This document shows positions 3,341 through 40,833 of a stretch of DNA of 42,712 nt, in pieces. The notes below the pieces were generated by a model. It worked only from the letters and a program-made list of their open reading frames with translations, searched no databases and had not been told where the DNA came from. The stretch lies in sequence record PQ850615.1; one strand, written 5' to 3'. The position numbers were made by a program, and so were the translations under genes. Position 1 is the stretch's first letter; every line of letters starts with the position of its first letter. The stretch comes from Escherichia phage LotteLoewe_Bas71.

Positions 3341-4417
3341 ATGCTATTAACTTTAGCGCCACAGGGTTTATCTATGAGCTTACTTACATCCCTAATCAGC
3401 CATCAGATATGGCTGCAACGCACCGCATCCGGTGAGGTGAAAGACCTCACGCCGTTCATTCAGGAGATAAGGGATGAAATCAAACGGCAGGTGCTGTTAT
3501 TCGGTGACGACGGTCGCAGCACTGCGCGACTGAATAAACTGTTACGCGACCTGGAAGAAGCACTAACCGGTATTACGGGTGACTGGCAAACAAAGCTAAC
3601 AGACGACCTTAAGGAACTGGCGGCGTACGAGGCTGAGTGGAACGTAAAGACACTGACCGCCAACGTAGACGCGGAATTTGTTACGCCTACCGCTGAGCAG
3701 GTATGGGCCGCTGCCGAGTTTCAACCATTATCATTGAGCGACAAGCCCGTTGATTTCACCAAGCTGATGGACGGCTGGGGTGAAACGGAAGTAGCACGTC
3801 TTGTAACTGGAGTTAAGATGGGCTTTGTGCAAGGTCAAACCACACGGCAGATTGTTAAGAATGTTGTTGGCGCTGGTGGACTAGCCGACATCTCAGAACG
3901 TAACGCGACTACGGTAATCCGCACCGCGCTGTCCCACGTATCCAACGAGGCCCGTAACGAGACGTACCGCCAGAACGACGACATCATCGAGAAGTACGAG
4001 TGGGTGTCAACGCTTGACAGCCGCACCAGTACGATTTGCAGGGTCAGAGACGGGATGACGTGGGAAATTGGTAAGGGGCCGATGCCCCCAGCCCATCCGA
4101 ACTGCCGGTCGTGCACGGCTCCGGTAATCAGTTCCGAGTTCGACTTCCTCGATAAAGGCGCAAAACGCGCGGCTAAAGGCGCGGAAGGTGGCACTCAGGT
4201 AAGCGCAGACACCACTTACTACGAGTTCCTTAAACAACAACCGGCGTGGTTTCAGGACCAGGCGCTCGGCCCGGTGCGAGGTAAGATTTTCCGTAACAGC
4301 GGTATATCGCCGGAAGAGTTTCGCGTAATATCTGTAGATGGTTTCGGGAATCCGCTCACGCTTAAGCAGATGGCGGAACTCGATAAACGTGTTGCTGATT
4401 ATCTGAAAGGGGAATAA
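3341..4417 (+). CDS. head morphogenesis / minor capsid protein (SPP1 gp7 / Mu F-like)
   Basis: 358 aa ORF following portal, the conserved position of the gp7/F-like head morphogenesis gene. Confidence 0.5.
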   Translation: MLLTLAPQGLSMSLLTSLISHQIWLQRTASGEVKDLTPFIQEIRDEIKRQVLLFGDDGRSTARLNKLLRDLEEALTGITGDWQTKLTDDLKELAAYEAEWNVKTLTANVDAEFVTPTAEQVWAAAEFQPLSLSDKPVDFTKLMDGWGETEVARLVTGVKMGFVQGQTTRQIVKNVVGAGGLADISERNATTVIRTALSHVSNEARNETYRQNDDIIEKYEWVSTLDSRTSTICRVRDGMTWEIGKGPMPPAHPNCRSCTAPVISSEFDFLDKGAKRAAKGAEGGTQVSADTTYYEFLKQQPAWFQDQALGPVRGKIFRNSGISPEEFRVISVDGFGNPLTLKQMAELDKRVADYLKGE

Positions 4418-4878
4418 TGATGGGCTTTTTCAAAGTAACTGACGTACCGTCTCGTCGCGTAGTCCAGTACGCCCGCGTGTCTGGCTCTGGCGAGAACGTG
4501 GTATTTATTGAGGACGAAAGTGTACTCGGTACACTGGTAGATGATATGCCGTTTGCAGATAAAACCGGTATTGCGTTGCCCGCCGCCGGTATGCTTTATG
4601 AAATTCCGTATCTGGCGGACGCTGGCGACGTGTATTTCTCTGCGCAACCGCAGGACGCTGAACTGGCGGGCGGCAGCGCAACCATCACTGTCGAGGTTAA
4701 GGCAGGCAAAGCGCCGTATTCTCTGACCTGGTACAAAGACGGTAAGGAAGTGGTGAATGCGCCTGAGGAGGCTCTGTCTCTGACGGTTAATGCGGTCGGC
4801 GAATACTTCGTTAAAGTTACTGATGCCGATGGAGTAGAGGCGGTAAGCAAAGCGGCGAAGGTTACTAAGCCAGAATGA
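4417..4878 (+). CDS. Ig-like domain protein (possible capsid decoration)
   Basis: C-terminal Ig-like signature (ATITVEVKAGKAPYSLTWYKDGKEV...GEYFVKVTDADG); ATGA overlap with upstream gene. Confidence 0.5.
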   Translation: MMGFFKVTDVPSRRVVQYARVSGSGENVVFIEDESVLGTLVDDMPFADKTGIALPAAGMLYEIPYLADAGDVYFSAQPQDAELAGGSATITVEVKAGKAPYSLTWYKDGKEVVNAPEEALSLTVNAVGEYFVKVTDADGVEAVSKAAKVTKPE

Positions 4879-4881
4879 TAA

Positions 4882-4909
4882 AAGGCCCCATTATGGGGCC
4901 TTAGTTTTC
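4882..4909. terminator. bidirectional intrinsic terminator
   Basis: AAGGCCCC-ATTAT-GGGGCCTT hairpin flanked by A-run upstream and T-run downstream; between convergent genes. Confidence 0.6.
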
Positions 4910-5111
4910 AACGGAATCTTGTGTTTAAATCCTGCTCATGGACAACCCTCAGAACAGTGTCATAATCCCCGTATCTTCCAGGTTCAAATATATCTAATGC
5001 CTTGTAAGCAGACATTGCGTCAGGGAAAACCTGCAGAACCTTTTTAACCCGGCACAAGTCACCGTCGAACTCTTCATCGAACTCTTGAACTACTTCGCAA
5101 ATTGCATACAT
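4908..5111 (-). CDS. hypothetical acidic 67-aa protein (opposite-strand accessory gene)
   Basis: Strong SD (AGGAGGTGA), own promoter at 5139..5167 and terminator at 4882..4909; antiparallel to flanking head genes. Confidence 0.55.
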   Translation of the reverse strand: MYAICEVVQEFDEEFDGDLCRVKKVLQVFPDAMSAYKALDIFEPGRYGDYDTVLRVVHEQDLNTRFR

Positions 5112-5138
5112 TTTTCACCTCCTGTTTAAGTTAACTGA

Positions 5139-5167
5139 ATAGTACCCTATTATATTGGGGTGTGCAA
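5139..5167 (-). promoter_or_regulatory. leftward class A promoter for accessory gene 4908..5111
   Basis: On the minus strand TTGCAC (5162..5167) - N17 - TACTAT (5139..5144); same palindromic core. Confidence 0.55.
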
Positions 5168-5208
5168 ACTATTTATTTACGTATTCCAGTTATTCCTCCG
5201 AATTGTAA

Positions 5209-5220
5209 ATGTTGGAATAA
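5209..5220 (+). promoter_or_regulatory. candidate late-promoter motif ATGTTGGAATAA (extended -10-like) upstream of spanins
   Basis: 12-mer identical to 5992..6003; contains TGgAATAA. Confidence 0.3.
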
Positions 5221-5221
5221 A

Positions 5222-5233
5222 CTATTCGAATAG
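5222..5233. repeat. perfect 12-bp palindrome CTATTCGAATAG
   Basis: Everted arrangement of the GAATAG/CTATTC half-sites found in the early promoter cores; adjacent to TTGACT (5234..5239). Confidence 0.5.
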
Positions 5234-5442
5234 TTGACTTTTCACTAAAAATATGATAAGCTCCACCTGAGCTTGTGAAGTATGAACAAGCGACCGCGGC
5301 GCGGGCAGGTAACGGAGCGGGACGTAAGTCCTGAGTGTAGTTACGCTGACGCGTTCGGAAGGGCCATACTCTATTGCTTGTGTAAAAAGTAACAGGTTTA
5401 CTGAGATTACGCCGTTTCTATGTTTAAATGATAAGGACTAGC

Positions 5443-5469
5443 GCCCTGCTTTAAGGCAGGGCTTTACTT
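5443..5469 (+). terminator. terminator/attenuator-like hairpin just upstream of the spanin RBS
   Basis: GCCCTGC-TTTAAG-GCAGGGC followed by TTTACTT; 17 nt before spanin ATG. Confidence 0.4.
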
Positions 5470-5486
5470 ATCGAGAAAGGAGAAAC

Positions 5487-5873
5487 ATGAATCTTAAAGC
5501 AACTGTCGTAGCAGGAGCATGTTTCATCATCCTGGTTTACGCACACGGCATCTACCAGTATCGCAGCGGATGGAACGAAGGCCGGGCTAATCTCGTTTCG
5601 CAGCAACAGCAGAAAGCACAGGCTGAGTTAGCGAAGAAAACACAACGGCAGCAGCAGGATGAATCGAAGGCCGCCGCCGCTGACAACGAAGGCAAGACGA
5701 AATCAGAGGTGATTACCCGTGAAGTCGTTAAGTACATTAAAACGCCTGGTCGCAGCGTGTGCACTTTTGACCCTGAGCGCGTGCAGCTCAAGTCCCGCGC
5801 CGTCGCCAACGCCAATTCCATCCCCGGATACGACGATGATGCAGCCGCCGTGCAAACTGGCGCAGCCAAGTAG
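5487..5873 (+). CDS. i-spanin (Rz-like)
   Basis: N-terminal TM helix (ATVVAGACFIILVYAHGIY), Q/A/K-rich predicted coiled coil; embeds a +1-frame lipoprotein ORF (classic Rz/Rz1 architecture). Confidence 0.65.
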   Translation: MNLKATVVAGACFIILVYAHGIYQYRSGWNEGRANLVSQQQQKAQAELAKKTQRQQQDESKAAAADNEGKTKSEVITREVVKYIKTPGRSVCTFDPERVQLKSRAVANANSIPGYDDDAAAVQTGAAK

Positions 5874-5982
5874 CGACGCTGATGAGGATTTGGCCGTCGA
5901 CGTTCAGAATGCTGAATGCGTACGGCAACTGAGGCTGAAAGTGTTTATGTTGCAGGATTACGTGAGGAATATTCTGGAATAG
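5719..5982 (+). CDS. o-spanin (Rz1-like outer-membrane lipoprotein)
   Basis: +1 frame overlapping the i-spanin; signal peptide with lipobox LTLSAC, proline-rich mature region. Confidence 0.65.
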   Translation: MKSLSTLKRLVAACALLTLSACSSSPAPSPTPIPSPDTTMMQPPCKLAQPSSDADEDLAVDVQNAECVRQLRLKVFMLQDYVRNILE

Positions 5983-5991
5983 TTGCCTTGC

Positions 5992-6003
5992 ATGTTGGAA
6001 TAA
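5992..6003 (+). promoter_or_regulatory. candidate late-promoter motif ATGTTGGAATAA upstream of scaffold/capsid genes
   Basis: Exact repeat of 5209..5220, about 60 nt upstream of scaffold ATG. Confidence 0.3.
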
Positions 6004-6064
6004 TTTATTCTTGACATGTAAATCCGGGTGGCCCGGATTCCAACGTCCAGGGGACATACTGACT

Positions 6065-6766
6065 ATGAATCGTTTTTTACGTTATCCGTTCCAGGAAGAA
6101 GCTGGAGCAGAAGATAAAGCTGGTGGCGGTGACGCTCCTAAAATGTTCACCGCTGAAGAAGTTCAGGCGCTGATTGAGAAAGAAGTTGCCGGGCTTAAGG
6201 CTAATCAGGAAGCATTGTTGGCGGAGAAGAAAGAAGCCGCTCGCAAAGCAAAAGAGGCCGAAGAAGAACGGCAGCGCGCGCACCAGGAGGCGTTAAAAGC
6301 CGCTGGTAAGATGGATGAGTTCGAAAAGACGATTCGTAGCCAGTACGACCCTGTGTTAGCCGAGAAAGACGGTCGCATCTCCAGAATGGCAGAGCGTATC
6401 CTCGGCAGCGAACGTAAAGCGGTGCTAGGCTCTTTCGCGGGTGACTTTATTACCCCAGAAGCAGTGGACATTCTTGCGCCGTTCGTTAAGACTGAGTTCG
6501 AAGGCGATGATGTGGTTACTAAGTTTGTTGGTGCAGACGGTAACGTAATCACGACTGACCCGGAACAGTTCCGCAAATACCTGCGCGAACACAAGGCGTT
6601 TTCGCATTTGATCAAAGCAAATGCAGCTTCCGGCGGCGGGGCTTCCGGTAGCAAAGGCGGCGGGGCCGCACCAGCGTTTAAAGACATGAGTGAAGCAGAG
6701 CGTTTAGCCCTGTATAAATCGAACCCTGCCGAATTTGAACGGCAACTTAAAGCCCTGAGGAAATAA
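6065..6766 (+). CDS. capsid scaffolding protein
   Basis: E/K/A-rich predicted coiled-coil protein immediately upstream of the major capsid gene; start refined to internal ATG 6065 with AGGGGA SD. Confidence 0.55.
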   Translation: MNRFLRYPFQEEAGAEDKAGGGDAPKMFTAEEVQALIEKEVAGLKANQEALLAEKKEAARKAKEAEEERQRAHQEALKAAGKMDEFEKTIRSQYDPVLAEKDGRISRMAERILGSERKAVLGSFAGDFITPEAVDILAPFVKTEFEGDDVVTKFVGADGNVITTDPEQFRKYLREHKAFSHLIKANAASGGGASGSKGGGAAPAFKDMSEAERLALYKSNPAEFERQLKALRK

Positions 6767-11958: not shown

Positions 11959-11984
11959 AAGGCCCCTTTCGGGGCCTTTTTCTC
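11959..11984. terminator. bidirectional intrinsic terminator
   Basis: AAGGCCCC-TTTC-GGGGCCTT hairpin followed by TTTTCT; between major tail gene and leftward cassette. Confidence 0.6.
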
Positions 11985-12213
11985 ACTCATCAATATTACT
12001 TCGATACTCCCGTAACTTCTCCAGACTTTCAATTGCTTCTGCTAAGTCGGTTCCGGTGTCCTTGTGTCCACGTAAACCCATGCACAATAGCTTCTTCAAT
12101 GCGTGCTGTAACGCCGGGTCGCGGATGTCGAAAGCGCGGAGCACATCATAAACGTCTACTGTCATAGTGCTGCCGTGAGTATTTGTCATTGTGCGGTTGT
12201 ATTTTGAAGTCAT
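11983..12213 (-). CDS. hypothetical 76-aa protein (last gene of leftward cassette)
   Basis: ATGA-coupled to the upstream metallophosphoesterase gene; followed by terminator 11959..11984. Confidence 0.45.
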   Translation of the reverse strand: MTSKYNRTMTNTHGSTMTVDVYDVLRAFDIRDPALQHALKKLLCMGLRGHKDTGTDLAEAIESLEKLREYRSNIDE

Positions 12214-13340
12214 CCCAGCATCTCCGGTGAAATAGTTAAACGTGCGACCTCGCCATATTCGGCGCTATAAGTAATTACGTTTGCGCTACGCCCAGACATC
12301 CATCCGCCGCGCGAGGCGTAGGCGTCTTTCGCCGCTAAGGTGCGGTGTTGCTCAACAATCATGTTACGGCTTTCTACAATCTTCTGGTGGTGCAGGTGGC
12401 CTACGTGGGCGTAGCTGTAAACACTCTCACCGAACGCTTTGCGGAACTTGGCAATCATAACCGGTTCGATAGCGTCGAATCGTGCTTTATGCCCGTGATG
12501 GAAGAACAGCGTCGTTTTGCCGTGTTGCACCATCTTGTAAACATCCGGCGACGTATCAACAATCACTCGGCTGTCGTTTGAGTATAAAACCGTGAACATT
12601 TCGGCAAGCCATACGGAGCCAACAGGGTCGTGGTTACCTTGAACGATTAAAAGTTTTACTGTGTGATGCTTAACCAGCGCCATATCAACAACACGGCGGA
12701 CCATACGAATCATGTAACGTACCAGTTTCTGATAGCGAGTATCCGCATCTAATACATGGCGCGACTCGGGGGTAACGGCATCAAGACTATCGAAGTGTGC
12801 GAAATCACCCAGCAGGTTAATAACTCCTGTTCCTGCATCCGGTGCTTTCTGAAACGCCGCGTCGAACCAACGAGAGAACAGGTCTTCTGCAATCTTCATG
12901 TCCCAGTCGTCGCCGCTCTCATCGGCCCATGCCAGCATACCGAGATGGAAATCAGATACAGTGTAAAGATTGAGTAGCTTGTCGTCACGTTTGGCGCGCG
13001 CCGCTTTAACAGGCGCAACGGGCGTAATCTCTGACTTCATGCCCTCTATTACGGCTTTCATCAATTCAACCTGACGTTCGGCGTCGGTATCAGTCTTAAC
13101 CCATTGCAACTTAGTGTTGCCGAACTCGTCCACAAGTGACGACGTTCCTTTAATCTTGTAGCCGTCTGGCACAAGGTGGCTAACGTCGCGCCCGTGGCCC
13201 ACGCCTTTCTTAGCCAGCTTCGCTTTACGGATACGAATAACTCGGTCTGAGATGCCGTATTTACGGGCGATGTCTACATTCTTCATCCCGGCGTTCAATT
13301 CTTCCTGTAACTGTTCGTCGGTTATTTTCTTCTGGGCCAT
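12210..13340 (-). CDS. HTH-domain + calcineurin-like metallophosphoesterase
   Basis: Complete metallophosphatase motif series DFHLG / GDFAHFD / GNHD / HHGH / GHLHH in order; N-terminal HTH-like segment (NVDIARKYGISDRVIRIRK); GAGGAAG SD. Confidence 0.65.
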   Translation of the reverse strand: MAQKKITDEQLQEELNAGMKNVDIARKYGISDRVIRIRKAKLAKKGVGHGRDVSHLVPDGYKIKGTSSLVDEFGNTKLQWVKTDTDAERQVELMKAVIEGMKSEITPVAPVKAARAKRDDKLLNLYTVSDFHLGMLAWADESGDDWDMKIAEDLFSRWFDAAFQKAPDAGTGVINLLGDFAHFDSLDAVTPESRHVLDADTRYQKLVRYMIRMVRRVVDMALVKHHTVKLLIVQGNHDPVGSVWLAEMFTVLYSNDSRVIVDTSPDVYKMVQHGKTTLFFHHGHKARFDAIEPVMIAKFRKAFGESVYSYAHVGHLHHQKIVESRNMIVEQHRTLAAKDAYASRGGWMSGRSANVITYSAEYGEVARLTISPEMLG

Positions 13341-13405
13341 GCTTACTTCCTCGTGTTTAGGATTTGTCCTATTTAACCACAGTGGATTCCTTTAAATAAA
13401 GGCGA

Positions 13406-13732
13406 CTATTTACTTTCTGCGCCTATCGCCCACCCTGTCATTACCATTTGCAGACGGGTGGCTGTCAGTAGGCTATAGAAAGCATCTCCGTTTTTCTCTA
13501 CCGAACGTATCACTGTGTAGGTTACGGCCTGCGGGGGTAGGCCCGATTTACCAACCTCCACGGCGGCCTCACACTCGCGAACTGTAGAGTCCTTGAACGC
13601 CTTTACAATAGTAGGGTCGGCTTTATCAAGCACACCAGAAGTCATAAGAACAGATTCACTAAATACCTGTTCGCACGGGGCTCCAAAAGTAGCAAAAGAC
13701 ATAAAACCCAGAGCTAGTACTAATTTACGCAT
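13406..13732 (-). CDS. secreted (periplasmic) 108-aa protein
   Basis: N-terminal signal peptide (MRKLVLALGFMSFATFGA), two cysteines; first gene after promoter 13761..13789. Confidence 0.5.
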   Translation of the reverse strand: MRKLVLALGFMSFATFGAPCEQVFSESVLMTSGVLDKADPTIVKAFKDSTVRECEAAVEVGKSGLPPQAVTYTVIRSVEKNGDAFYSLLTATRLQMVMTGWAIGAESK

Positions 13733-13749: not shown

Positions 13750-13778
13750 GTTACATGTGAATAGTACCCTATTATATT
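13750..13778 (+). promoter_or_regulatory. candidate rightward promoter overlapping the leftward one (divergent pair)
   Basis: GTTACA (13750..13755) - N17 - TATATT (13773..13778) on the plus strand within the same palindromic element; upstream of tail chaperone operon. Confidence 0.35.
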
Positions 13779-13789
13779 GGGGTGTGCAA
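13761..13789 (-). promoter_or_regulatory. leftward class A promoter for cassette 13732..11983
   Basis: Minus strand TTGCAC (13784..13789) - N17 - TACTAT (13761..13766). Confidence 0.55.
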
Positions 13790-13795
13790 GTAGTG

Positions 13796-13806
13796 TGCTA
13801 GAATAA
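13796..13806 (+). promoter_or_regulatory. candidate late-promoter motif variant TGCTAGAATAA upstream of tail chaperone operon
   Basis: 9/11 match to TGTTGGAATAA; about 90 nt upstream of 13897. Confidence 0.2.
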
Positions 13807-13896
13807 GTTTGCGCCTAGTGTCGCACACGAAAAGCGGGTGGTTCCCGCCTGGCGCATTAACCATAACCAGTAACCTCTTAACCAAAGGACTAAAGA

Positions 13897-23767: not shown

Positions 23768-23792
23768 AAGGCCCCGTTTGGGGCCTTTTCTC
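23768..23792. terminator. bidirectional intrinsic terminator between tail and replication arms
   Basis: AAGGCCCC-GTTT-GGGGCCTT hairpin followed by TTCTC; flanked by convergent operons. Confidence 0.6.
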
Positions 23793-26510: not shown

Positions 26511-26826
26511 TTCTAAATTCCTTATATTGTTGGGGTATGTGCTTACTATAATAGTCTGCTATTAGGGTGTCAATCTGTTTTATCGAACCAACGACAAAAA
26601 CATTTGCGCCACGTTTACGTATACGCTCGTGTTCCCGTAGCTGGTGCGGGTCTGGCTTAGTGTTTTCGTCTTTCTTCACCTCGACGAACCAGACGATGCC
26701 GCCGGGTAGAATTGCCAGCAGGTCAGGAGCGCCTGAACGTCCTTCGTAGGAAAGTTTACGAACGAGGCCACCAATGGCCTCGAATCGCTCTTTTGCGTAT
26801 TTCTGGATGCGGCCCTCTTTAGTCAT
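26494..26826 (-). CDS. VRR-NUC domain nuclease
   Basis: PD-(D/E)XK-like core (GAPDLLAIL ... VWFVEVKKDEN) typical of VRR-NUC. Confidence 0.55.
   Translation of the reverse strand: MTKEGRIQKYAKERFEAIGGLVRKLSYEGRSGAPDLLAILPGGIVWFVEVKKDENTKPDPHQLREHERIRKRGANVFVVGSIKQIDTLIADYYSKHIPQQYKEFRNETRI
26545..26573 (-). promoter_or_regulatory. leftward class B promoter (TTGACA-N17-TATAGT)
   Basis: Minus strand TTGACA (26568..26573) - N17 - TATAGT (26545..26550); lies inside the 3' end of the VRR-NUC ORF. Confidence 0.5.
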
Positions 26827-29526: not shown

Positions 29527-29551
29527 GTAAAAAGGCCCAATGAAGGGCCTT
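29527..29551 (-). terminator. intrinsic terminator after SSB-like gene
   Basis: On the minus strand AAGGCCC-TTCATT-GGGCCTT followed by TTTTTAC. Confidence 0.5.
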
Positions 29552-29570
29552 AGTTAAATTGATTCAGATA

Positions 29571-30255: not shown

Positions 30256-30284
30256 ACTATAATAGCTAACTATTCATGTGTCAA
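30256..30284 (-). promoter_or_regulatory. leftward class B promoter (TTGACA-N17-TATAGT) for SSB-like gene
   Basis: Minus strand TTGACA (30279..30284) - N17 - TATAGT (30256..30261); core AATAGCTAACTATTCA. Confidence 0.55.
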
Positions 30285-32555: not shown

Positions 32556-32584
32556 ACTATAATAGCGAACTATTCACATGTCAA
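32556..32584 (-). promoter_or_regulatory. leftward class B promoter (TTGACA-N17-TATAGT) for acidic early gene
   Basis: Minus strand TTGACA (32579..32584) - N17 - TATAGT (32556..32561); core AATAGCGAACTATTCA. Confidence 0.6.
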
Positions 32585-32599
32585 TGGGCTTTTCTAAAA

Positions 32600-32628
32600 T
32601 AATTAATATGGTACTATTCACATATCAA
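32600..32628 (-). promoter_or_regulatory. second, weaker tandem leftward promoter / operator half-site
   Basis: Minus strand TTGATA (32623..32628) - N17 - TAATTA; contains half-site GTACTATTCACAT. Confidence 0.35.
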
Positions 32629-32648: not shown

Positions 32649-32864
32649 ATGCAACCATCTGAACTAGGCATCCGTGTAGAACAACGCCGCAAAGAACTCG
32701 GCATCTCCCAGCGCCGTTTGGCGGCCCTGACCGGCGTTTCCCAGGGCGCGATTAACCAACTGGCACTTGGAGTAACTCAGGACGTCCGCCCGGCAACGCT
32801 GTTCAAACTGGCGGAAGTTCTGGAAGTAGACGCCAAGTGGCTGGCGTTAGGTGAAGGGGCTTAA
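32649..32864 (+). CDS. XRE-family helix-turn-helix transcriptional regulator (Cro/CI-like)
   Basis: HTH signature (ISQRRLAALTGVSQGAINQLALG); AAGGAG SD; own terminator; oriented against the surrounding leftward genes. Confidence 0.7.
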   Translation: MQPSELGIRVEQRRKELGISQRRLAALTGVSQGAINQLALGVTQDVRPATLFKLAEVLEVDAKWLALGEGA

Positions 32865-32881: not shown

Positions 32882-35104
32882 CTATTCCAAATCCTCCTCT
32901 GTCACCACCAGCATCTCATTTGGTTCGTATAGTGTCTTCGGCCTTAATCTATCCCCTATTCTTTCGGGTATACGATATGTTCTCGGTACTACTTCGCCGT
33001 TAGCATCGCAACCAAGCATTAGTTCTCCATCTTTCAACATTTTATCAAGATGGGTGTTAGTCACAGAGAAGTCACCGGAACGAGCCACTATCTGCTGCTG
33101 AGTAAAACCGCGACCTGTGTCATCTGACTGTTGCAGGTCTTCCAGTGCCGAAAGTATTGACTCCTTCCTTACTTCATCCCTGCCGCGTTTAACTTCTTCC
33201 TTTACTTTTTGCTTACCTTCTTTCGTCAACCCTTCTTCCCGCTCTTTCTCCTCGTCAGTTTTGAACGGCTCGAAACCCCACGGCATCAACACAAGCGCCT
33301 TGTGTGGTTCAGGAAGGTCCAGGTTTACGATTGTGCCGTATTCTTCTGTGCCCCCCAGGAACTCAACCGCACGGTACTCTTTCGGCGGAGGAGCTTCGCG
33401 GAACTGCACAGACTCCAGCACCATGCCAACCGTTTTCTGTTGAGGACCGTGCTTAAATTTCGAGTGGTATACGTTTATTTGACGGTCGGTTGCACGTTCG
33501 ATTGTCAGTTCCACGTCAACACCCGCATACAGCGCCCCACTGCCGCGTGCTTTCTTTCCACCCTTCGGCGTATGGTGGACAACGCCTACTGCGGCTTTAG
33601 TTGCATCGCGTACTTCTTTCAGAATGGCGATAACTTTACCCATGCCGATTGCTGTTGATGAACTGTTCTCGTCGAACTTATCAATCGTCAGTGCCAGGGT
33701 CTGGTTAAGGGTGTCGAACGCAACCATGCCAATTGGCTCGTCGCCAGCAGTTTCGCGCATTAACTTAATCAGGCTTTTAAGTTTGCCGACTTCGCCCATA
33801 TCGATGACGTGTACATAATCTTTACCTTCCCCGCCATATTTAGCCGCTAGTGCATCAATACGGGTGCGTGTAGCTGCGCCACCCTCACCATCAATATAGA
33901 AATGGTGGCAACGCTGGGTATCCGCCCCCGCAAACCTGTACCCGGCGGCGCTGAGGTACATCATCCCCAGCGTATAGAACGATTTGTACGTGCCAGATTC
34001 CCCGACGATATCCCAGATACAATCCGACGGCATGTACCCCTCAACGACGAAATCAGCCTTTACCGGCTCCGGTAACTCGTCCTCCTCTGAGTCCTCGTCG
34101 TCTTCCAGGTCGTCGAGGCTGCAAGTTACTGGGTCCTCGTTCTCTGTGCGGTGTAGTTCTTCAATCTCTTCTTCCGGTAAATCAGGCAGAGCCGCACGAA
34201 TGCTGTTAATGCTGATAGGTTGCTTATCTATGTTAAGCTCGTCGGGTAGGCCACACATACGCAGGGCCAAATGCTGCCTACGGTTAAGCTCGGTGCAAGC
34301 GCCGTTGTTTGTATGCTGGCAGACAAAGCGCACTTCTTTACCGTCGAGCATTATGCTGGTGGAGCCCTTGCCTGTATGCAGATGTTCGTTAGGGCATGGC
34401 ACTTCGTACCCGCGCCCGGAAGATAAAGCGTCAAGGCCAAGCTCGGCTTCGCAGAAGTGTGCTATATCCGCGTTAAGCCCATGCTCATCAGCGGCAAGTG
34501 TTTTAGCCTCACGCTTACGCAACCCCATCTCTTCGGCTTTCTTGATGTACCGCTCAGCACGGATAACACGCCCTTCTGTAACCGTTATCTTCGACTCTTT
34601 ATGCGGCAGGTAGATAAGGCGGTTGCCGTCTTCTGTGCAGTGGTCGCGCAACGCTTCGTCTATTTCTAACTCTGCACAAATAGCACGTTGCACCATCCAC
34701 GCGTCGTTAGAGTTAAACGGCGTGCGAGCTGGAACCAGAACGCGGAAAGCGTAATCTCCGTTTTTACACACATGCTGATGCGATGCCGTTGTATGCAGAA
34801 TATTGAAGAACGGTGCGTTCTTGAATTTGCGGGTAAGGTCGCGGTACTGAGTACGGTTGAGATGGTCGAAATCGAACTTAACCACACTGTCTTCCAGGAT
34901 AGCGTTTTTACGGCGACCACCAACAGGCGCAATAGCTTTCTGTTTAATCTTGGCAGCGTCGTACTCTTCCTTAGTCCATGACGGGTCCACGGATAAACGC
35001 TTCGATGTATCGCAGACATACTCCACAAACTGCTCGAGCGGCATCTCACGCGCTACAGGGTTTTTATCGAATGTGTTACGCAGCGTTGCAAAAACAATAT
35101 TCAT
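32882..35104 (-). CDS. DNA primase-helicase (primase N-terminal region + RecA/DnaB-like ATPase)
   Basis: 740 aa; Walker A-like GESGTYKS; C-terminal helicase motifs (VVHHTPKGG ... GSGALYAGVD); N-terminal Cys/His cluster (CPNEHLHTG ... FVCQH). Confidence 0.65.
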   Translation of the reverse strand: MNIVFATLRNTFDKNPVAREMPLEQFVEYVCDTSKRLSVDPSWTKEEYDAAKIKQKAIAPVGGRRKNAILEDSVVKFDFDHLNRTQYRDLTRKFKNAPFFNILHTTASHQHVCKNGDYAFRVLVPARTPFNSNDAWMVQRAICAELEIDEALRDHCTEDGNRLIYLPHKESKITVTEGRVIRAERYIKKAEEMGLRKREAKTLAADEHGLNADIAHFCEAELGLDALSSGRGYEVPCPNEHLHTGKGSTSIMLDGKEVRFVCQHTNNGACTELNRRQHLALRMCGLPDELNIDKQPISINSIRAALPDLPEEEIEELHRTENEDPVTCSLDDLEDDEDSEEDELPEPVKADFVVEGYMPSDCIWDIVGESGTYKSFYTLGMMYLSAAGYRFAGADTQRCHHFYIDGEGGAATRTRIDALAAKYGGEGKDYVHVIDMGEVGKLKSLIKLMRETAGDEPIGMVAFDTLNQTLALTIDKFDENSSSTAIGMGKVIAILKEVRDATKAAVGVVHHTPKGGKKARGSGALYAGVDVELTIERATDRQINVYHSKFKHGPQQKTVGMVLESVQFREAPPPKEYRAVEFLGGTEEYGTIVNLDLPEPHKALVLMPWGFEPFKTDEEKEREEGLTKEGKQKVKEEVKRGRDEVRKESILSALEDLQQSDDTGRGFTQQQIVARSGDFSVTNTHLDKMLKDGELMLGCDANGEVVPRTYRIPERIGDRLRPKTLYEPNEMLVVTEEDLE

Positions 35105-35300: not shown

Positions 35301-35589
35301 ACCGTTTAGCCAACCCTTCCAGCAAATTTTTATACTCTTCAAAATATTCCTCGACCAAATCATCGCCGAAATAGAAGTCGATATACTCGAGATTATCTCT
35401 TACGTTAAGCGATGCCGACATGGTGCTTAGTTGGCGTAAGCTAATTAGCTTCATTTCTGTTTCTACGCAGAAAGGCCGGTAGGTATCAAGATGGCAAGAG
35501 ATATTGAAGCATAAAGCGAACTCTCCGGCCACGGAGTGAACCATATACACTTCGTTTTCTGCTTTATTGTGGAAAATTACGCCTTTCAT
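35299..35589 (-). CDS. hypothetical 96-aa protein
   Basis: ORF ATGA-coupled to the upstream AlpA-like gene. Confidence 0.4.
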   Translation of the reverse strand: MKGVIFHNKAENEVYMVHSVAGEFALCFNISCHLDTYRPFCVETEMKLISLRQLSTMSASLNVRDNLEYIDFYFGDDLVEEYFEEYKNLLEGLAKR

Positions 35590-35768
35590 TTCACGTTCTC
35601 CTTAATCCATGCTTCGACTTTATTACGGTCAAATGTTCCCGGTAAACGGCGGCCCATAACCTTAATACAGCAGTCAGGGAATTTGCCGCTGCGCAACCAG
35701 TTATTAATGGTCTGACGTGTCACCCCGATACGCTCGGCTACCTCATTCTGTGTCATGTAATGTTGCAT
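35586..35768 (-). CDS. AlpA/Xis-like HTH DNA-binding protein
   Basis: Start refined to ATG 35768 (AGGGGA SD); HTH region MTQNEVAERIGVTRQTINNWLRSGKFP typical of the AlpA family; first gene of the leftward arm. Confidence 0.6.
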   Translation of the reverse strand: MQHYMTQNEVAERIGVTRQTINNWLRSGKFPDCCIKVMGRRLPGTFDRNKVEAWIKENVK

Positions 35769-35799
35769 TTTTATATCCCCTGTTTGTTTAGTGAAACCG

Positions 35800-35865: not shown

Positions 35866-35895
35866 TTGAAAGTTCTTGACACATGTTTGTATAAT
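35866..35895 (+). promoter_or_regulatory. rightward promoter in central control region (TTGAAA-N18-TATAAT)
   Basis: -35 TTGAAA 35866..35871, 18-nt spacer, consensus -10 TATAAT 35890..35895; divergent from promoter 35800..35828. Confidence 0.5.
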
Positions 35896-36094
35896 GGTTT
35901 TGGGACTTGTATATATTACGGAGTTGACGAACCCTCCCCGAGGGATTCGTCAACCCCTCCCAGACAGCTGAGATGCTTGCCTTGTGGTTTAAGGATAAGT
36001 GTATCTAAATCTCATTTAAAGAAGTAACCCGCTGAAATATCTACTGTTTCTTAATGTGCCGTAGATTCGCAACCGTAAAAATGTAACGATTATT

Positions 36095-36122
36095 GGGCAG
36101 GCTTAGGGCCTGCCCTTTAGTT
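36095..36122 (+). terminator. terminator-like hairpin ending the control-region transcript
   Basis: GGGCAGGC-TTAGG-GCCTGCCC followed by TTTAGTT. Confidence 0.4.
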
Positions 36123-36187: not shown

Positions 36188-36216
36188 TTGCACACCCCAA
36201 CATAATAGGATACTAT
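36188..36216 (+). promoter_or_regulatory. early promoter, class A (TTGCAC-N17-TACTAT) with palindromic core
   Basis: -35 TTGCAC 36188..36193, 17-nt spacer, -10 TACTAT 36211..36216; core CATAATAGGATACTATTCA. Confidence 0.55.
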
Positions 36217-36241
36217 TCACTTATCGAAACGAGACAGAGGA

Positions 36242-36442
36242 GTGAGGGTTATGTTTAAGAAGGGTCAGTTGGTTAAAACTAAACGCGGAGGGCAATATGT
36301 ATTAGTGTTGCAGGACGAGAGCGAGTATGACGAGGATAATCTGGTTGACGTATGGGGTCTGGTAAGAAAGAAAACTGGGTTCGCCTCCCGCGATAATTTA
36401 GAACTCATCGGCAACAATTTTAAATTCAAAGGGGCGAAGTGA
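36242..36442 (+). CDS. hypothetical early protein (66 aa)
   Basis: First ORF after promoter 36188..36216 with conserved AACGAGA...GGAG leader. Confidence 0.45.
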   Translation: MRVMFKKGQLVKTKRGGQYVLVLQDESEYDEDNLVDVWGLVRKKTGFASRDNLELIGNNFKFKGAK

Positions 36443-37380: not shown

Positions 37381-37409
37381 TTGCACACTAATATAGAATA
37401 GGCTACTAT
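37381..37409 (+). promoter_or_regulatory. early promoter, class A (TTGCAC-N17-TACTAT)
   Basis: Same architecture and core (TAGAATAGGCTACTATTCA) as 36188; follows terminator 37266..37296. Confidence 0.55.
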
Positions 37410-37440
37410 TCATTTACACAAACGAGAGGAGAGACGGAAG

Positions 37441-37590
37441 ATGGTTACTTTGATGATTATGGAATTCGAAAACAGCGCCGCAACTTATCGCGAGATGACT
37501 ATGGCGCAGGCGTACCGCCTGGCCTCGAACGGCAACTTCTACAAGGCGCAAATCATCAATGAGTTCGGGGTAATTGACTATGAATTTTAG
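37441..37590 (+). CDS. hypothetical early protein (49 aa)
   Basis: First ORF after promoter 37381..37409; 22-bp leader CGAGAGGAGAGACGGAAGATGG. Confidence 0.4.
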   Translation: MVTLMIMEFENSAATYREMTMAQAYRLASNGNFYKAQIINEFGVIDYEF

Positions 37591-37852: not shown

Positions 37853-37871
37853 GCGAGAGGAGAGACGGAAG

Positions 37872-38009
37872 ATGGGCGGGTACGGTAGCTGGACTTTAGG
37901 CGAACTGGTAGATGCTTACGAAATAATGGGCAGCACTTCGGTGTGCAACGGAGACACTAAATCGCTTCTAGTCGGGGCGGATGAGAAAAGGGGTGAAGCT
38001 GATGAGTAG
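37872..38009 (+). CDS. hypothetical early protein (45 aa)
   Basis: Preceded by an exact second copy of the 22-bp leader/start element (37854..37875). Confidence 0.35.
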   Translation: MGGYGSWTLGELVDAYEIMGSTSVCNGDTKSLLVGADEKRGEADE

Positions 38010-40782: not shown

Positions 40783-40804
40783 ATCTATTTTCTGCAATGA
40801 CTAG

Positions 40805-40833
40805 TTGACTATTACCTACGACCCTATTATATT
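40805..40833 (+). promoter_or_regulatory. rightward promoter (TTGACT-N17-TATATT)
   Basis: Canonical sigma70 spacing; sits right after terminator 40754..40782; spacer carries CCCTATTATAT, related to the shared core. Confidence 0.55.

Follow-up and report, generated by a model that had tools for sequence, protein, structure and literature searches.

The 42,712-nt stretch of DNA from Escherichia phage LotteLoewe_Bas71 analysed here (PQ850615.1; the whole stretch is referred to below as the window) contains a 32-bp exact direct repeat, TGAATAGTACCCTATTATATTGGGGTGTGCAA, at 5136-5167 (site 1) and 13758-13789 (site 2). Shuffling the sequence 100 times gave zero equal matches. The reading that we favour, at a probability of roughly 60%, is that the repeat belongs to a family of promoters for the host RNA polymerase with an embedded operator for a dimeric helix-turn-helix (HTH) protein of the phage, that the two copies drive accessory cassettes, and that at site 2 the leftward promoter competes with a rightward promoter for the tail operon. 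In the mechanism proposed, each 32-bp copy would act as a sigma-70 type promoter firing leftward into a small accessory cassette, against the direction of the late genes; a 14-bp dyad (hereafter the box) lying within it would serve as operator for the phage-encoded HTH protein; and this protein, once accumulated, would block RNA polymerase at all boxed promoters together. Occupation of the site-2 box (13760-13773) would silence the leftward unit and free the overlapping tail-operon promoter. Site 1 would have no divergent partner, the spanin/head unit having a promoter of its own about 70 bp to the right. Repression is what one would naturally expect of a box that overlaps either the spacer or the -10. 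We infer each of these steps from sequence: that the dyad binds a protein, which protein this would be, the sign of the regulation, and the promoter competition at site 2.

The window is a genome of the genus Kagunavirus (Guernseyvirinae). Its region 4400-6400 is 99.5-99.6% identical to Escherichia phages vB-Eco-KMB35 and SonjaBuckley_Bas74 (Bas74), and also matches more than 360 other Kagunavirus and Jerseyvirus genomes. According to the annotation of Bas74, a rightward block runs from small early genes to the lysis, terminase, head and tail genes, a leftward replication block occupies approximately 24-36 kb, and two short leftward insertions, 4908-5111 and 11983-13732, interrupt the late genes. 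The two copies of the repeat stand at the upstream ends of these insertions.

On the minus strand the repeat contains the hexamers TTGCAC (5167-5162 and 13789-13784) and TACTAT (5144-5139 and 13766-13761), separated by a 17-nt spacer; on the plus strand it contains TATATT, at 5151-5156 and 13773-13778. Exact matches to TTGCAC-N17-TACTAT, designated class A, number four in the window, and two of them are additional plus-strand copies that have diverged and retain the same hexamers:

5136-5167, minus strand: class A copy 1; -35 at 5167-5162, -10 at 5144-5139, box at 5138-5151 overlapping the -10, predicted start at about 5132
13758-13789, minus strand: class A copy 2; -35 at 13789-13784, -10 at 13766-13761, box at 13760-13773
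36188-36219, plus strand: class A copy 3, before the rightward early genes (ATG at 36251); box at 36204-36217
37381-37412, plus strand: class A copy 4, before the gene for a DUF7170 protein (ATG at 37441); box at 37397-37410

All four copies face a gene with a Shine-Dalgarno sequence, whose ATG follows 27-35 nt past the -10 (5111, 13732, 36251 and 37441, respectively). The initial annotation, made from the sequence of the window alone, had described a palindromic element shared between 5135-5167 and 13750-13789, carrying a strong leftward promoter TTGCAC-N17-TACTAT for an opposite-strand accessory gene. The element is indeed present at both sites as an exact 32-bp repeat, with the hexamers as given there, but it is not confined to them, as the plus-strand copies beginning at 36188 and 37381 demonstrate. 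That the element is a promoter is supported by the ribosome-binding site (RBS) and ATG, found 20-30 nt downstream at each of the two sites, and by retention of the cassette in relatives; that it is a strong one was an assumption, as the hexamers match the consensus at only 7/12 positions, which is also why a simple consensus scan did not list class A. The TTG and TAnnnT positions are kept, and the 17-bp spacer lies within the 16-18 range. The assignment of class A to the host sigma-70 type is supported by position, orientation and conservation, and on these grounds we treat it as the probable one. The description of the core as palindromic likewise needs to be narrowed: the conserved dyad of copy 1 is GAATAG-tacc-CTATTa (5137-5152), whereas the 32-mer taken as a whole is only partly palindromic. 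An ACCC...GGGT symmetry across the spacer was considered as the functional palindrome and rejected, being imperfect (7/9 pairs) and missing in copies 3 and 4 and in many relatives.

Sequences like AATAGGnTACTATTCA recur in a search around the -10 region, and repeat finding tied the class A copies to three leftward promoters in the replication block, designated class B. The feature common to the two classes is the 14-bp dyad AATAG-N4-CTATT. The class B promoters, together with that of a regulator gene taken up below, are as follows:

26545-26573, minus strand: class B, TTGACA-N17-TATAGT; box at 26550-26563, in the spacer
30256-30284, minus strand: class B, before the gene for a Gp2.5-like single-stranded DNA-binding protein; box at 30261-30274
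32556-32584, minus strand: class B, divergent from the promoter of a 434-Cro-like (HTH_3) gene; box at 32561-32574
32589-32619, plus strand: promoter of the 434-Cro-like gene, with a one-mismatch box AATAT-ggta-CTATT (32605-32618) over the -10 TACTAT

Seven exact dyads were counted in the window; in 1000 shuffles that preserved dinucleotides, the mean was 0.038 and the highest count 2. When all palindromes of the form 5-N(0-8)-5 were counted blindly, AATAG-N4-CTATT was alone in reaching at least 4 copies in the window, and it has the same sole status, with 7-8 copies, in four other Kagunavirus genomes (L001, L003, L007 and L009). Three Jerseyvirus genomes (L004-L006) have 4-5 copies, tied there with an overlapping TAATA-N6 dyad. 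Every one of the seven dyads of the window lies in promoter-like sequence facing a gene. Six are intergenic, and the remaining one (26550-26563) falls within the 3' end of the resolvase open reading frame (ORF), a short way before the following gene. The count leaves out two one-mismatch boxes (3335 and 34931), about one such site being expected by chance.

The position of the box relative to the -35 and -10 is not constant. Three registers were found: over the -10, as in class A; in the spacer, as in class B; and, in a Jerseyvirus promoter of the form TTGCAT-N17-TATTAT, 3 nt further upstream than in class A. Orthologues of the class B promoters were chosen by their downstream 5' untranslated region (5'UTR), so that the box played no part in the choice. 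Their half-sites show no variation outside Salmonella phage vB_SenS_SE1 (SE1; L008, NC_069151) and one Jerseyvirus site (CGATT), whereas the N4 at the centre and the linker between dyad and -35 do vary, 1-nt indels included. Over all sites and genomes the N4 centre takes at least 9 different forms, and the Jerseyviruses keep the dyad although both its centre and its flanks have diverged. SE1, a more distant member of the Guernseyvirinae, retains TTGACA and TATATT at the orthologous promoters, but there the dyad has decayed, and the SE1 genome has zero exact copies of AATAG-N4-CTATT. No replacement palindrome was found in SE1; the sequence AGTATTA occurs four times in it, each time at a promoter, but that number equals the chance expectation. 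Because SE1 has kept the hexamers without the dyad, and because the register varies, the dyad is separable from the elements recognised by the polymerase. Such separability would mark a site bound by a dimeric protein, as opposed to a promoter element, and we take the dyad to be a putative operator for a phage-encoded regulator. The idea, raised in the initial annotation, of a regulator binding to the palindromic core is supported in a more general form, with AATAG-N4-CTATT as a promoter motif that is found genome-wide and across genera and to which a protein is predicted to bind.

The rightward direction differs between the two sites. At site 2, where competition is proposed, the relevant features are these:

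13777-13804, plus strand: extended -10 promoter TGcTAGAAT of the tail operon; weak -35 TTGGGG at 13777-13782, TG at 13796-13797, -10 TAGAAT at 13799-13804, predicted start at about 13811
13811-13855, plus strand: leader structure of the tail operon, beginning at the predicted start; outer stem GCGCC/GGCGC and two hairpins

Both the TG and the TAGAAT are fixed in 18 distinct Kagunavirus sequences, and the intervening nucleotide may be c, t, a or g. The equivalent position reads TGtTATTCT in Jerseyviruses, and TAGAAT is kept in SE1. Conservation of TGnTAGAAT in this manner is the pattern expected of an extended -10 promoter, and we predict one here. The leader is conserved in Jerseyviruses too, with invariant loops GAAAAG and TGGTT and with compensatory changes, SE1 included, at 4/14 pairs. 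It belongs to the tail-assembly-chaperone operon and may serve for regulation or for mRNA stability. The preceding tail gene is followed by a terminator hairpin, 11959-11978 (it was flagged by the scan on the minus strand, and its plus-strand T-run was read from the sequence), so that the tail operon plausibly needs its own promoter; at site 2, no terminator was found before 13897. The rightward TTGGGG lies within the spacer of the leftward promoter, and the rightward -10 starts 10 bp past the leftward -35. On this predicted geometry the two polymerases would be unable to bind together.

Site 1 has no counterpart to this arrangement, and the features facing the spanin gene stand further off:

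5234-5262, plus strand: class C promoter TTGACT-N17-TGaTAAGCT, conserved and facing the spanin gene; one-mismatch box at 5229-5242 over the -35
5270-5470, plus strand: conserved structured non-coding leader or small RNA of about 200 nt, ending in an intrinsic terminator (5443-5462) with a T-run, just before the spanin RBS

The class C promoter begins 67 bp from the leftward -35 and is kept from Kagunavirus to Jerseyvirus, even in L004, a Jerseyvirus that has neither the cassette nor a class A promoter at site 1. In the leader, a long-range helix and the terminator stem both show compensatory changes, and 10/50 of all predicted pairs have them. An Rfam search of the whole window at the gathering threshold gave zero matches, and for the region 5200-5500 only chance-level matches were obtained at E values up to 10. 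Some relatives have a second, paralogous copy of the leader in their early intergenic region (at 36064-36255 in L003, and in L067, L053, L074, L089 and L093). The Bas74 annotation places a 36-aa (amino acid) ORF within the leader region. Near-boxes centred on the -35, of the form A[AC]TAG-TTGA-CT[AT]TT and kept into Jerseyviruses, were noted as a separate matter at two rightward promoters, TTGACT-N17-TATATT (40800-40833) and TTGACT-N17-TAAGCT (5229-5262); their significance is uncertain, as about one near-match is expected by chance.

It is convenient to set against these features what the initial annotation had proposed for the rightward direction: overlapping divergent promoters at both sites, the rightward one with TATATT as its -10, and a single regulator that would thereby control an accessory gene and a late operon at once. 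Overlapping divergent promoters are probably present at site 2, by way of a TGnTAGAAT signal that lies outside the shared core; they are not found at site 1, nor with the signals named. Joint control of accessory gene and late operon is correspondingly plausible at site 2 but not at site 1, where the spanin gene has its own promoter.

Two small HTH proteins encoded in the window are candidates for binding the box:

32649-32864, plus strand: 71-aa Cro/C1-type HTH protein (Pfam HTH_3, E = 3.9e-13)
35589-35774, minus strand: HTH_17 protein of approximately 60 aa, 'excisionase and transcriptional regulator' (Pfam HTH_17, E = 1.9e-8)

The best solved relatives of the 71-aa protein are 434 Cro, itself of 71 aa, and 434 repressor, both of which bind 14-bp dyad operators. 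Its gene lies on the plus strand within the leftward block, and its promoter diverges from a boxed class B promoter that lies 4 bp away. It is annotated in other relatives as a repressor, Cro or DicA, and is not annotated in Bas74 (33202-33417 there), where a 31-aa minus-strand ORF (33217-33312) has been entered instead. As to the HTH_17 protein, no box was found in the promoter of its gene, and a search of solved structures gave no informative match. SE1, alone among the relatives in having no boxes, lacks the gene. In the only RNA sequencing (RNA-seq) study of a Kagunavirus, on phage K1B4, it is among four genes classed as 'early', the data being gene-level and asynchronous, taken at 5-120 min over several infection rounds, and too coarse for transcription starts or reliable classes (PMC12645636). 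On mechanistic grounds the Cro-like 71-aa protein is the likelier candidate binder, with the HTH_17 protein as the alternative.

Several observations weigh against the scheme in which such a protein represses class A and B promoters through the box. The class A hexamers match the consensus at only 7/12 positions. SE1 retains a homologue of the 434-Cro-like protein (40% identity) yet is without boxes, which argues against that protein as the binder; and the box is identical in Kagunavirus and Jerseyvirus, though their 434-Cro-like proteins are only 48% identical and differ in the recognition helix. The HTH_17 proteins are 69-82% identical across clades in which the box is unchanged, and the 69% variant coexists with eight boxes. 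Small HTH_17 proteins of the Xis/AlpA type, moreover, are not typically symmetric dimers on short perfect dyads, which speaks against the HTH_17 protein. Neither candidate, in short, co-varies with the box, but as the box does not vary wherever it occurs, the comparison carries no information. The centre of the site-2 box lies at approximately -44.5 from the predicted rightward start in Kagunavirus and at approximately -42.5 in Jerseyvirus, and this 2-bp difference makes a strictly phased direct activation of the tail promoter unlikely. Finally, the K1B4 study puts the site-2 cassette in its 'late' class, unlike what simple early shut-off would give, with the same coarseness of class assignment (PMC12645636).

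A wider version of the proposal, in which the box and its binder constitute the temporal switch of the Guernseyvirinae, shutting early, accessory and replication promoters and turning on late units by way of the freed tail promoter, goes well beyond the operator itself and we regard it as speculative and rather unlikely. The same protein might also act at the 5234 and 40805 promoters, or on read-through of the terminator at 5443-5462. If true, such a switch would supply a form of control for phages that use only the host RNA polymerase and have no described late regulator.

Among the alternatives to a repressor operator, one that we judge unlikely makes the box the loading site of an antiterminator of the Q/AlpA type, namely the HTH_17 protein, which would then allow polymerase to read through downstream terminators. 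An early HTH_17 protein is encoded, and the sole box-less relative is without it; furthermore, the 5234 promoter, with its degenerate box on the -35, is followed by a leader of some 200 nt and a strong terminator before the lysis/head genes, a layout that resembles the PR'-6S RNA-tR' region of lambda. Against this, there are at least three registers of the box relative to the start, which are hard to fit to a geometry-dependent loading event; no terminator separates promoter from genes in the class A and class B units; and a check by eye, the only one made, found no evident pause-inducing -10-like element downstream.

The repeat might instead be a mere footprint of a mobile promoter cassette spread by recombination, with a palindrome that is functionless in itself. 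All 32 bp agree between the two copies, even at positions that no model needs; the same combination of promoter, 5'UTR and RBS is joined to unrelated ORFs in different phages; and an exact 22-bp repeat covering an RBS and ATG recurs at 37423 and 37854. Spread of this kind would explain the identity of sites 1 and 2 but not the dyad, which is kept in class B, where no other sequence is shared with class A, and in the Jerseyviruses, where the flanks have diverged; the half-sites are fixed while the centre varies, and in SE1 the dyads have decayed as a set. As a complete account of the element we therefore think it quite improbable.

A further possibility, to which we give very little weight, is that the shared core is itself bidirectional, with TATATT as the -10 of a rightward promoter for the spanin and tail-chaperone operons. 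TATATT matches the consensus at 5/6 positions, its register relative to the box is exactly that of the functional -10 in class B (CTATTATAGT), and at site 2 the window has GTTACA-N17-TATATT, a match of 9/12. At site 1, owing to a 2-bp difference from site 2, the hexamer 17 bp before TATATT is AAGTTA, which matches the -35 consensus at 2/6 positions only. The spanin gene has its own conserved promoter at 5234-5262, and as the terminator at 5443-5462 lies between the core and that gene, transcription started from the core would meet the terminator first. At site 2 the GTTACA belongs to the 5'UTR of the window's own cargo gene and is replaced by GGTGTA or GGTGTG in Bas74 and other relatives, so that the -35 is not conserved; TATATT itself gives way to TATATC, with loss of the critical last T, in two relatives (L084 and L128), and the invariant signal is TGnTAGAAT, 20 bp further to the right. 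A rightward promoter with TATATT as its -10 is not supported at either site. Lastly, the idea that a transcription machinery specific to the phage reads the box as a promoter element, which goes back to the seven matches tgAATAGTa-ccTATTat-T that PHIRE found in phage fBC-Eco01 and that were labelled phage-RNA-polymerase promoters (PMC9825357), can be set aside as highly improbable, given that 0/81 annotated coding sequences of Bas74 are an RNA polymerase, that the boxes lie within an ordinary -35/-10 with a 17-bp spacer, in three registers and at no fixed distance to the start, and that SE1 retains the hexamers without the box.

The preferred reading, a host promoter with an embedded operator, also bears on the genes that the two leftward copies drive, which are arranged as follows:

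4908-5111, minus strand: gene for a 67-aa acidic protein, driven by copy 1; a moron
4882-4902, both strands: bidirectional terminator hairpin AAGGCCCC-N-GGGGCCTT, ending the copy-1 unit and the upstream Hoc-like gene
11983-13732, minus strand: three-gene unit driven by copy 2, ending at the hairpin 11959-11978
13406-13732, minus strand: 108-aa protein, with a hydrophobic N-terminus suggestive, by inspection, of a signal peptide
12210-13340, minus strand: 376-aa metallophosphoesterase ('DNA repair exonuclease', PHROG 704) of the site-2 unit
11983-12213, minus strand: 76-aa protein, the last gene of the site-2 unit

Each leftward unit has its own promoter (5167 and 13789, respectively) and terminator and is opposed to the surrounding late genes, as morons are. 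The 67-aa gene was found only in the window and in Bas74. The 108-aa gene was found only in the window, and Bas74 has a superinfection-immunity gene in that place, so that the cargo differs between the window and Bas74 at both sites. In contigs of the IMG/VR database, one promoter with its 5'UTR and RBS (for example ...TACTATTCAGTTAACTTAAACAGGAGRTGAAAAATG) is joined to at least 5 different ORFs. Both units would appear from these comparisons to be moron-like cassettes that swap cargo at conserved regulatory boundaries, and exchange at such boundaries would account for the exact 32-bp identity of sites 1 and 2. With promoters from the boxed family, the morons would come under the regulatory programme of the phage itself. 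The K1B4 data place the site-2 moron in the same temporal class as the leftward replication genes, which fits co-regulation, the data being too coarse for more (PMC12645636). A further sign that regulatory boundaries are reused in the exchange of small genes is provided by the 22-bp repeat mentioned above, CGAGAGGAGAGACGGAAGATGG, whose two exact copies (37423-37444 and 37854-37875, plus strand) span the RBS and start codon of two adjacent early genes. As a side observation, the 376-aa phosphoesterase has an N-terminal HTH-like segment with a weak match to PHROG 836, 'late transcriptional activator' (E = 9e-4).

A close parallel to the box is provided by the OR/OL operators of phage 434, which are likewise 14-bp dyads whose outer half-sites are fixed and whose centre varies, and which overlap core promoter elements; the candidate binder is a 71-aa Cro-like HTH protein, and its gene lies in a divergent boxed promoter region. 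The differences are that the boxes here occur singly at 8-10 dispersed promoters of a virulent phage, instead of forming tandem triplets at one immunity region, that there is neither a repressor/Cro pair nor a lysogeny module, and that binding is predicted here. The leftward units resemble morons in being small opposite-strand units with their own promoter and terminator, situated between late genes and variable in presence and cargo. They differ from them in that their promoters belong to the same boxed family as the early and replication promoters of the phage, so that they would be co-regulated and not autonomous, and in that the site-2 unit also carries the conserved 376-aa phosphoesterase. 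In T4-type phages, the PeSL cassettes reuse an early-promoter module, itself with conserved flanks, at the borders of variable small genes, which it seems to help shuffle; here, by contrast, there is no stem-loop upstream of the promoter, and the repeated unit comprises promoter, 5'UTR and RBS. The site-2 box also recalls lambda OR2, between PR and PRM, where a single bound protein represses one promoter and favours the divergent other, in lying over the leftward -10 with its centre at approximately -44.5/-42.5 from the divergent start. Unlike OR2, its spacing is not conserved, activation is only a possibility, and in view of the close overlap of the promoters, relief of competition is the simpler explanation.

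The motif has been seen before as a 'phage promoter'. The genome paper of fBC-Eco01 gives its seven PHIRE matches as promoters of a phage-encoded RNA polymerase (PMC9825357), and that of phage Golestan lists seven PHIRE promoters (PMC7203180); these are the same motif as the box. Genome papers have in this way mislabelled the motif, assigning it to a phage RNA polymerase for which these phages have no gene. A literature search found no account of the dyad, its variable register or its binder. Members of Kagunavirus and Jerseyvirus are widely isolated for use in therapy and biocontrol, and their transcription programme is essentially undescribed. The element proposed here is of a known kind, a host-polymerase promoter with an embedded operator that drives morons, and involves no new mechanism. 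What an operator would offer is a testable regulon of 8-10 promoters together with two small candidate regulators, one of them unannotated in Bas74, and it would account for opposite-strand cassettes in the late region that are tied to the timing of the phage.

Outside the Guernseyvirinae, a pattern scan of IMG/VR returned one boxed promoter, TTGCAG-N11-GAATAGCGTACTATTA, close to the anti-repressor gene in temperate phages of the phiV10/TL-2011b type. In phiV10, TL-2011b, phiv142-3 and others (IMG/VR entries L013, L015, L045, L057 and L059 among them) the one promoter TTGCAGACTGGGGGTGAATAGCGTACTATTA stands near a Bro-N/Ant anti-repressor gene; it has the same type of -35, the box and the -10, with one box per locus. 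No homologue of the 434-Cro-like or the HTH_17 protein was found in these loci, and their boxed promoter is treated here as possibly unrelated.

Some further features of the window may be recorded. No tRNA genes were found in it. Near-identical terminator hairpins AAGGCCCC-N3-4-GGGGCCTT occur at 4882-4902, 11959-11978, 23768-23787 and 29530-29552, with T-runs on both strands, and are placed where the direction of transcription switches. The early intergenic region 35866-36122 (plus strand) opens with a near-consensus rightward promoter, TTGAAA-N18-TATAAT, at 35866-35895, and contains a 32-bp near-perfect palindrome, GTTGACGAACCCTCCCCGAGGGATTCGTCAAC, at approximately 35925-35956 and a terminator at 36095-36115. 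It has no convincing ORF, and some relatives hold a paralogous leader-like RNA at the same position.

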